Source of the DNA: Malacoraja senta
Lineage: Eukaryota
Direction of reading: 5' to 3'
Assembly (NCBI GenBank): GCA_038087875.1
Contig: CM075981.1
Coordinates: 72,168,001-72,232,000, forward strand
Length of the DNA: 64,000 bases
Positions 13,101-16,100 of this stretch are shown piece by piece. Both the position numbers and the translations under genes were made by a program. The notes beneath the pieces are model-generated. The model worked only from the letters and a program-made list of their open reading frames with translations, was not told where the DNA came from and did no database searches. Numbering within the stretch: the stretch's first letter is position 1; the number at the start of each line of letters is the position of its first letter.

Positions 13101-16100
13101 GGTTTAGGTGTTGTCAGTTCATCCTGGCTGCTTCAACTAACGGCGCTGGGAATGGGCGTTAGTATAATTGTTATAATGGGGCGGAGTTAGTGATGCCAAC
13201 TAAGTGTGATTGATTCACATGCATCCTCAATCTACATCCTTTCCCTTAAAGATTAAAAGCATATTAAACATACTCGCCATACCTGTCTGGTGGTCTACTA
13301 ACACGGCCCGAACGCGTGCGGACCCAACCATCCCCTCCCTCAACTGAAGGATGAGGCGGGGAGGTTGAAGGTGAAAACCGCACGGGAGAGGATTGTGGTG
13401 ACCGAGGGGGGAAACATGCGGTGGGTGAAACCCCGTGGTTATTGGAGACCGATAGACGTGGGGGAGTGGCAGGCATGTGGGGACGGGCGGGAGACATCGC
13501 GGAAGGTGGCTGGAACTGGAGCAGCGGAGCATATGGATCGGCAGGCGGCGGTCGGGGCTCCCTCACAGCAAGCAGGTGTTGACGACTTCTCCGGTAAACC
13601 GCTCCCTCACAGTCCACAAGGTACGATCGCGGCTCATCAGTCGGGCGCACAACAACGCCCAGACGAGAATGTCCTTGCCCTTTTTGTAGGTAATCGAGAA
13701 GTCGTACCGCTGCAGCTGCATCATCATGCGCTGCAAACGAGCTGGGGCGGCGTGGATAGGCTTGTTCAAGATTGTCACCAGTGGCTGGTGGTCCGTCTCA
13801 ACCATGAACGTGTTGCCAAAGACGAAGTCGTGGATCAAAGGAAACTTGCAGTTTGTGGACAGTTTTGTCAAAGGAAATCAGCCCTAGTTCCTGACAGGCA
13901 CGATTGCCAAGCAGGGTAACCGAATTAAAGTTCAGCACATGGAAAGTCAATTCCCTAGTTGTTTTCTTCAGTACACATTTCAAGTCGGCTTTGCCCAGAG
14001 GAAATAGCACCTCCCCGCCAAAAGCATGCAAAGTGGACGCATCCTGGACAAGTGGCTCGTTAGCCCTGATCCTGTTAAAAAGGTTGATTGACATTGTATT
14101 GACTCTGGCCCCCGTGTCAAGTTTCGCGCCAAATGCAACATTGTTTACAGATATCGTAACTGTAGGATCAGAGTTCTTGGCAGCAGCACCGGCAGAGTCT
14201 CCCGCCGACCCCAATGTTTTGCTGCGTAAACTGGCTCAGATCTGTGACCTGCCCTCAAATCACATTTTGGACAGGGCAAGGTTTTTCTCTCATCGTCAAC
14301 TTCCCGGGGAACGAGCGGATGCATATATTTCCTCTTTAATGTATCTAGCACAACGTTGTCGATTTCAGGAAATGCCTGCGGATCAGTTGACTGATCAGTT
14401 AACGAGGGATATTTTAGTGAATGGTATCACCGATCAAAAGCTCAGATCAGAGCTATTGAGACGGCCAGAGTTGTCGCTAAACGACGCAGTGCATGCGTGT
14501 AGAACGGCTGAACTTGTTGATCCTATAGACATTCCGCATGAAAGCAATACCATCAATCTGACGGGCCTCACTAGGCAGCGGACATACAGAGATAACAGCC
14601 GATCCAAGATCCAAGAGAAGCACGATACCCAGAAACGGTCATACGACAGTTCCAGCAGACCACTCCAGCCTCTACTGCCGGGCCAGGTCGTCCGTCTACG
14701 AACTCCAACTGGAGGCGTGGGTTCGAATCCCACTTCTGACACCATGTAGATCACTTCAAAGCATATAAGATTTACACACATCTTTATTCAGCACATTAAC
14801 TTAGCAGCATTACAGGTTTAGGTGTTGTCAGTTCATCCTGGCTGCTTCAACTAACGGTGCTGGGAATGGGCGTTAGTATAATTGTTATAATGGGGCGGAG
14901 TTAGTGATGCCAACTAAGTGTGATTGATTCACATGCATCCTCAATCTACATACACCAGTCAATGTTTTATTTTACAATGCACGTGTCCACATTCTGCATT
15001 GTTTCTTTTTCTCTCTTGCGTATCTACGTATAGTATGATTTGCCTGGACAGCACCTAAAGAGGATTTTGTAGGACGGAACTGCAGATGCTGGTTTATACC
15101 GAAGATAGACCGAAAATGCATTTCATCAGGACTCCATTTGCCTCGTTATGATGAGGGATGAATTAGAATGCAATCTGCAAAATCTAGAACTGAATTGTAT
15201 TAGGACTGAGGTTCACTTTAAAATTCCAGATTTCTCCTTCAATATCACCTCCCTTGATGGTACACAAAAATGCTGGAGAAACTCAGCGGGTGCAGCAGCA
15301 TCTATGGAGCGAAGGAAATAGGCAACGTTTCGGGCCGAAACCCTTCTTCAGCCCGAAACATTGCCTATTTCCTTCGCTCCATAGATGCTGCTGCACCCGC
15401 TGAGTTTCTCCAGCATTTTTGTGTACCTTCGATTTTCCAGCATCTGCAGTTCCGTCTTTATCACCTCCCTTGATAGCTGATTTAAAAAAAAAATCCAATA
15501 AGCACAATGAATATCAACAAATATTTTCTTCAGTTGATCATTTTCTTCAGAAAAATTGTTTGCAGGACCAGAATGTTGCGTGCAAGGATAGCATTTATTG
15601 CCCATTGTTACATGCCTTTTGAGAGGCTCTCATGAACTGCTTCTTAAAGTCTAAGAAGTAGTGAAGATAGTTGCTGTTGGACTGCAGTACCCAGATTTTT
15701 ACCCATTGCCAATGAACAGTTGATGATGTATTTTCAAGTCAGGATGATGAGGCATGGAGGACAATTTGCAGGTGGCAATATTCCAATTTGTTTGCTGCCT
15801 CTATCCCTCCAGGTGACTGTAGATCAGTTGATTGGGTGTGGTATGATGGTGGTAGAATTAATGTTCTAGGTGGTCCAATCAACATTTAACTTTAGTTTAG
15901 CTTATTGTTACGTGTACCGAGGTACAGTGTTTTTACAGATTTTTATGTTATGTGCTATCCTGATCAGCAGAAAACTATCCATAATTACAATCGAGCCGTT
16001 CACAATGTACAGACACAGGATAAAGAGAATAACGTATAGTGCAGGATAAAGTCCAATCAAAGATAGTCTGAGGCTCTCCGATGAGGTAGATGGTAGGTCT

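Follow-up and report, generated by a model that had tools for sequence, protein, structure and literature searches.

Integrated over-extended copies of a tRNA-Leu primer beside gypsy-type LTRs in Malacoraja senta, and their probable origin by read-through of m1A58

Read-through of reverse transcriptase (RT) past m1A58 of a tRNA-Leu primer, followed by a template switch, very probably produced a small, defective gypsy-type LTR element in the genome of Malacoraja senta. Whether m1A58 acts as the plus-strand stop in vivo has been debated for decades. The element was found in the window (the whole stretch of 64,000 nucleotides that was analysed), where it is one ordinary member of a population, and the significance of the observation rests on that population. 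A survey for other extended primer-binding sites (PBSs) beside LTRs, proposed with the original prediction, found them in quantity: among 1281 loci genome-wide that carry an exact 18-nt Leu PBS followed by TG, 326 continue exactly to tRNA position 47i or beyond, with any base at position 58; when up to one mismatch is allowed, 457 loci match.

As it stands in the assembly sequence, the window element is a single integrated unit of 1920 bp on the minus strand (13031-14950). Its two LTRs, both of 206 nt with TG...CA ends, differ by one mismatch and are enclosed by a 5-bp target-site duplication (TSD; Table 1); the element is young. From the 5´ LTR inwards it consists of the tRNA copy, inverted pieces 4034-3931 and 949-520, and sense pieces 1253-1611, 2758-2923 and 4032 to the end, where the numbers are positions on the long family copy L049, used as a ruler. 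The successive joins overlap by 11, 7, 2, 5 and 6 nt. No second copy spanning any of the internal junctions was found among the 40 best genomic candidates and the fetched loci, and the element is thus best regarded as a one-off product. It does not behave as a member of an amplifying non-autonomous family (TRIM, Helenus), since its internal structure is not shared and its tRNA part lies outside the LTR. In a listing of sequencing runs, seven rows contain part of the element interior, with no RNA row among those listed. Elsewhere in the window, at 15256-15430, there is an 84-nt inverted repeat (96% complementary, 7-nt spacer) built from a dispersed repeat that occurs several times in the window; its miRNA-like Rfam matches are below threshold.

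Table 1. Features of the window element and its flanks, in window positions; ruler positions are those of L049
Feature	Positions	Strand	Basis or remark
5-bp target-site duplication, left copy	13026..13030	.	same sequence as 14951-14955
3´ LTR, 206 nt, TG...CA	13031..13236	-	1 mismatch vs 5´ LTR
Polypurine tract adjoining 3´ LTR	13237..13247	-	sequence
Sense piece, integrase C-terminal region and 3´ UTR (ruler 4032 onward)	13237..13674	-	blastn vs long copy L049
Sense piece, RNase H fragment (ruler 2758-2923)	13669..13834	-	Pfam RT_RNaseH 25.4 bits, cut-off 24.8
Sense piece, protease fragment (ruler 1253-1611)	13830..14188	-	Pfam gag-asp_proteas E 3.5e-4, under its cut-off
Inverted piece, putative gag region (ruler 520-949)	14187..14616	+	"gag" from location upstream of protease; no Pfam match
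Inverted piece, integrase C-terminal region (ruler 3931-4034)	14610..14713	+	located 3´ of rve core
11-nt microhomology, tRNA-Leu(CAA) 45-47h = integrase region; putative template-switch site	14703..14713	+	sequence
tRNA-only overrun, positions 47i-58; A58 = 14726, A in window copy	14714..14726	+	sequence
18-nt copy of tRNA 3´ end (59-76); native PBS of the family = 15 nt, 14730-14744	14727..14744	-	sequence
5´ LTR, 206 nt	14745..14950	-	sequence
5-bp target-site duplication, right copy	14951..14955	.	sequence

Compared with tRNA genes of the host genome, the stretch 14703-14744 corresponds to positions 45-76 of tRNA-Leu(CAA), a match of 42 nt. The original prediction had located the 18-nt copy of the tRNA 3´ end and A58 correctly, with the LTR adjoining, and was right that the match extends past A58, but its length of 35 nt proved too short. 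It had allowed that no host tRNA-Leu might match beyond 18 nt; the tRNA-Leu(CAA) genes match far past that point. Against gene positions 45-73, 38 of the 39 gene-encodable bases (14703-14741) are identical, the single difference falling at 47b relative to L171 and at 57 relative to L178/L179, and the base just upstream of 14703 is a mismatch to the tRNA. Within the match, 31 nt (14714-14744) are tRNA-only and 11 nt (14703-14713) are identical to the family integrase region in all six long copies examined, which bears out the predicted fusion of tRNA copy and integrase sequence. The chance of one given 11-mer occurring in a 4.7-kb element, on both strands, is about 0.002.

The match is continuous from beyond position 59 through the PBS to the LTR, and it ends in a CCA that none of the three tRNA-Leu(CAA) genes tested encodes. 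Together with intron-less joins at two other loci, L180 and L220, the non-encoded CCA indicates that the template was mature tRNA. L180 (G000:C4936, about 178174-178260, minus strand), found by a separate search, holds a complete, spliced tRNA-Leu(CAA) with CCA, flanked on one side by an LTR 94% like that of L124 and on the other by integrase sequence in sense orientation. ARAGORN annotates it as a tRNA-Leu, and it has no substitution at 58, 47d, 37 or 26. In L220 (G000:C2:110107566) the overrun passes the splice site and ends at 26, where m2,2G26 is expected; positions 58, 47d and 37 are all substituted in this single molecule. Among the host tRNA-Leu genes fetched, an incomplete set, three CAA genes contain an intron and have exact 5´ ends, one gene is truncated and two are degenerate; a further five are CAG genes. 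A gene identical to the window copy (A47b with G57), the most-copied isodecoder, is absent from this incomplete set. L178 and L179 are identical CAA genes with A57, and the loci listed with them (L172, L244, L245) include one gene truncated after the anticodon stem and two degenerate ones. In the window, ARAGORN found no tRNA gene and Rfam just a 21-nt sub-threshold tRNA match.

Judged from its sequence, the family is a Ty3/gypsy-type LTR retrotransposon. A long copy encodes RVT_1, RT_RNaseH, Integrase_H2C2 and rve in that order, which is the gypsy order, with the protease upstream and no env. Its ORF ends adjoining the polypurine tract (PPT) and LTR, and it has both a PBS complementary to the 3´ end of a host tRNA and a PPT before the 3´ LTR. 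This is the layout of Ty3/gypsy elements (Metaviridae), LTR-PBS-gag-PR-RT-RH-IN-PPT-LTR without env. The family may belong to the Mag-type clade; for a clade name, database matches gave generic RT/RNase H clusters only, and the literature search gave none.

Long copies have a native PBS of 15 nt. The original prediction had assumed a normal PBS of 18 nt; an 18-nt copy is present in the window element, but the length native to the family is 15 nt (22 of 100 listed junctions, by eye). These junctions were obtained with a family-specific pattern that returned 137, loses about one quarter at random through a trailing degenerate letter, and misses PBS variants such as L047-L049. Among the 100 classed by eye, 22 show the native leader with the 15-nt PBS, 8 an 18-nt tRNA copy leading back to the leader, 56 a copy of 17-18 nt that jumps elsewhere, 13 an extension past 58, and 1 another arrangement. 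Inherited tRNA sequence of at least 17 nt is thus present in 78 of the 100. A 15-nt native PBS would leave the normal 18-nt tRNA copy with an unpaired end of 3 nt, and because of this short PBS and unpaired end plus-strand transfer may often go to microhomology elsewhere. On the 3´ side of the 15-nt PBS lies an 11-nt leader box (e.g. at +20..+30 after the LTR in L043) that equals tRNA 47g-54 at 10 of 11 bases and would rescue short overruns; one of the 100 junctions is a short overrun that returns to the native leader at this box. Two ruler positions in the RT region, 1914 and 1873, are hotspots with 29 and 15 of the 100 junctions, and here normal 18-nt strong-stop DNA appears to have acted as a primer on element RNA. 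The same junctions were considered as "subfamilies" X and Y, that is, amplified non-autonomous lineages. This was rejected, since the first junction is common but the second is different in every copy mapped (12 and 4, respectively), as expected of hotspots.

The genome-wide set of overruns was limited to tRNA-Leu primers in this one genome. Reversed-pattern controls gave 0 genomic matches. Of the first 30 matches of the 32-nt pattern, 29 adjoin an LTR via CCA and one is a gene; visual inspection of the first 30 among the 1281 loci showed 9 to be extended. The overall proportion of about 25% refers only to loci that have the full PBS of 18 nt, the family-native 15-nt PBS loci being outside the count. 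For closer study we used 114 loci (113 distinct), namely the first 100 of the 326 and 14 from contig 2, 12 of which were picked from the exact-match list. The 113 copies fall into 34 LTR clusters at 80% identity and 57 at 90%, and they have 108 distinct junctions, a few being common between loci (4 clusters). Nearly all overruns therefore represent independent events. Five copies (L060, L061, L068, L092 and L203) had tRNA-Leu(CAG) as primer. L071 and L266 each have a further, partial copy of the tRNA in tandem, as though RT had gone back into the tRNA.

Given this diversity, it is highly improbable that the extension is an inherited family trait in the form of a long PBS, or an independent tRNA or SINE insertion beside an LTR. 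The few junctions common to several loci (4 clusters), and the returns to the native leader seen among the 100 family junctions (8 with an 18-nt copy, 1 with a short overrun), are what a trait might leave. Against it, the shortest overruns measure 31 nt and the longest take in the whole tRNA, nearly every junction is unique (108 distinct in 113 copies), and long copies carry the 15-nt PBS without extension. As a general account, the family trait, which the original prediction had named as the normal alternative, is refuted by the native PBS and the junction diversity. An independent insertion fares no better: every overrun copy ends in CCA flush with the LTR start, with neither poly(A) nor a separate TSD.

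The copies carry errors and stops at particular tRNA positions. At position 58, a hand count in the first 100 of the 326 loci gave 61 A, 25 T, 9 G and 5 C, i.e. 39 non-A. Extrapolated, this corresponds to about 127 non-A bases at 58 against 131 single mismatches over 32 other positions, a difference of about 30-31-fold. The scarcity of C agrees with the m1A-A context in the available data of Hauenschild 2015 (PMC4787781). In L128, 2 nt are missing at 57-58, where RT skipped the modified base. At 47d, the 48 copies that match for at least 4 nt further have C in 10, T in 28, G in 7 and A in 3, such that 38 of 48 are misread; the other positions in the same analysis have 6 mismatches in 450. All 10 of the tRNA-Leu gene loci found that retain a 3´ half have C at 47d, and misreading occurs in both 47b alleles and in all five CAG-type copies. 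Since the gene set is incomplete, an unseen T47d gene could explain part of the 47d signal. Copies also tend to end here: 39 of the 87 reaching 47e end at most 3 nt past 47d, and an estimated one quarter stop right at 47e, compared with 2-10% per position just before. A first figure for the 47e stop, 37 of 88, was partly a walk artefact, and re-analysis gave about one quarter with more ends 2-3 nt past 47d.

The signature at position 37 consists of stops and one mismatch. Among 14 CAA copies that reach position 39, 12 end at 39-37 and one at 35 (possibly through microhomology), while the remaining one has T for G37 and continues to 26; three of five CAG copies end at 38. An excess of position-specific mismatches and stops, as in RT signatures of modified bases, is thus found at 58, 47d and 37, and the errors point to m1A58, m3C47d and m1G37. 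We infer that the substitutions arose by misincorporation at m1A, m3C and m1G. The same stops and mismatches, at m1A58, m3C47d, m1G37 and m2,2G26, are described in the available parts of RT-based mapping studies (Hauenschild 2015, PMC4787781; mim-tRNAseq, PMC8062790; tRAM-seq, bioRxiv 2024.01.30.575011), but here the enzyme is an endogenous germline RT and the record is stored in the genome. In these sources, as far as available, the zebrafish tRNAs listed with m3C47d are Leu-CAG and Ser, Leu-CAA not being among them (bioRxiv 2024.01.30.575011), and for human Ser-UGA is named (PMC8062790). The misreading at 47d suggests its presence on Leu-CAA as well.

It is unlikely that the overruns stem mainly from hypomodified primer tRNA, packaged in the germline without m1A58 and copied faithfully. 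Position 58 is A in 61 of the first 100 copies, both the window copy and L180 are free of substitutions at the modified positions, and loss of TRMT6 led to read-through in vitro in the experiments accessible to us (PMC8599865). An unmodified A does not give the T, G or C seen in the other 39 copies, however, and correct reading of m1A belongs to its known signature. Furthermore, 24 of 32 copies that read A58 misread C47d, and their primers were thus modified elsewhere. If the substitutions are misincorporations, at least about 39% of events are due to error-prone bypass, and not merely to a hypomodified primer. The status of A58 and that of C47d are unlinked (Fisher p 0.69; 8/24 vs 2/14 on re-analysis), which, with the error-free L180, points to some hypomodified primers. 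The original prediction had offered a hypomodified or a bypassed A58; bypass holds for the population to the extent given. The window copy reads both A58 and C47d correctly and carries no modification signature, and for this copy alone, with its A at 58, hypomodified primer and bypass fit equally well.

What follows the tRNA copy in the 113 copies is sense element sequence in 73 and inverted element sequence in 12, with 28 left unassigned. For the 85 resolved joins, deletion is thus the usual outcome and inversion the rarer one. Sense joins are expected if an overrun anneals to the end of the minus strand at microhomology. Pulsinelli and Temin reportedly described in 1991 deletions with extra tRNA sequence in retroviral vectors, ascribed to a late stop on the tRNA and transfer to a small homology. 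These mutants resemble our 73 sense-joined copies, but they were single-round vector mutants and are not known to carry a modification signature or to include a class of RNA-templated inversions.

For the window element, the steps may be reconstructed as follows. Plus-strand strong-stop DNA likely ran past m1A58 of the mature tRNA-Leu(CAA) primer to about position 45, and the overrun likely annealed, via the 11-nt homology at which it overlaps the integrase sequence, to element RNA that was still uncopied. Backward copying of this RNA would have given the inversion, and the extended strand would finally have joined the end of an incomplete minus strand. The acceptor for the inversion was probably element RNA rather than DNA, as suggested by non-overlap, breakpoints and one informative end. 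The inverted pieces of the window element come only from parts that are missing in its sense pieces, and in 18 of 18 other family copies the point at which sense sequence starts again coincides with the inverted piece or lies 3´ of it (crude chance 3e-5). To be included here, a copy had to contain an inversion along with a mapped sense piece, and L162 and L063 were excluded for lack of the latter. Such non-overlap is expected if RNase H had removed RNA that was already copied. Breakpoints are reciprocal (4034/4032 in the window, 1609/1611 in L160, 3201/3201 in L150), and in the window the inverted integrase piece starts at most 3 nt from where sense integrase resumes. The inverted copy of L040 extends just to the first base of the PBS, which is where an RNA template would end after minus-strand strong-stop synthesis. 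Among inversions testable genome-wide, 4 of 5 are non-overlapping and 1 of 5 has an inverted/sense overlap of 39 aa.

Alternatively, the read-through may be real and the inversion a separate matter, due to fold-back, a second minus-strand DNA template, autointegration or later DNA recombination, with the extended strong-stop DNA just annealing to a minus-strand end that was already inverted. The 73 of 85 resolved overruns that join sense sequence make annealing to minus-strand DNA the default, and inversion circles from autointegration are known in particles of plant retrotransposons, according to the available text of PMC7197481. Still, a separate origin seems improbable. Inverted pieces avoid the sense-copied regions in 18 of 18 family copies and in the window, breakpoints are common to inverted and sense pieces, and the inverted copy of L040 ends at the PBS. 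In addition, 12 copies start the inversion at one 6-nt homology and each resumes at another place, which argues for recurrent RT events, and the window element has two intact LTRs and a TSD. Exclusivity of inverted and sense pieces, breakpoints and recurrence in the family thus support the proposal of the original prediction that RT read past A58 and jumped onto element RNA, giving rise to the inversion.

The mechanism is that of retroviral over-extension combined with a strand-transfer error; what is new is that its products are integrated, abundant and gypsy-type, and that they carry position-specific errors. In HIV-1, over-extended strong-stop DNA formed in vitro stops at 55, 54 or 37 or copies the tRNA completely, and according to the parts of these reports available to us, products that go past 54 can neither complete transfer nor integrate (PMC13191261; PMC8599865). 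The P1-P5 products of HIV-1 and M-MLV described there are like those found here in that the tRNA is copied past 58; RT may stop further on, at 37 among other sites, or, on unmodified tRNA, copy the whole molecule (PMC13191261; PMC8599865). They are, in the same accounts, biochemical or cell-culture intermediates, whereas the germline genome of M. senta contains hundreds in integrated form, with LTRs; unlike HIV-1 and M-MLV, the elements are env-less and gypsy-type, use a tRNA-Leu primer and have kept the misincorporations. The leader box recalls the lentiviral primer over-extension sequence or primer activation signal, a leader segment complementary to the tRNA T arm (PMC13191261, as available), but it follows a 15-nt PBS and a 4-nt spacer and skips the T loop, and its function is putative. 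According to the available text of Cullen and Schorn (2020; PMC7472051), the PBS of Ty1 and Ty3 is passed on strictly, without sequence from the primer tRNA, and modification-linked changes were not found in mouse ERV PBSs. Compared with these, tRNA sequence is inherited here (78 of 100 family junctions) and substitutions fall on modified positions. Helenus/TRIMp3 are likewise non-autonomous LTR elements with tRNA sequence; in the available description, the tRNA part lies within the LTR, where it serves as a Pol III promoter, and is common to the family (Kojima, 2024; PMC10886601), whereas here it is the primer at the PBS and copy-specific. Integrated overruns do not appear in the available portions of PMC11251516, PMC5371799 and PMC7197481. 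We found no published report of integrated over-extended PBSs with modification signatures at genome scale, in a search that did not extend to older or subscription papers, supplements and Repbase/Dfam notes.

In conclusion, we incline, with modest confidence, to a joint reading in which gypsy-type elements of this genome routinely bypass m1A58 and integrate the overruns, the genome becomes a heritable library of tRNA modification, and transfer onto uncopied RNA mass-produces inversions. If this is true, past germlines have left their m1A58, m1G37 and choice of isodecoder, as well as an m3C47d on tRNA-Leu(CAA) that is so far unreported, in hundreds of dated insertions, and plus-strand transfer has a second route, onto genomic RNA not yet copied, by which inversions are made in large numbers. 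A practical warning is that intron-less, CCA-ended "tRNA genes" beside LTRs can be primer copies, as in L180. The origin of a large class of LTR elements with deletions and inversions would be explained, and the bypass rate, the choice of primer isodecoder and the modification state of germline tRNA would be readable from assemblies alone, in records that could be dated via LTR divergence and compared between species.
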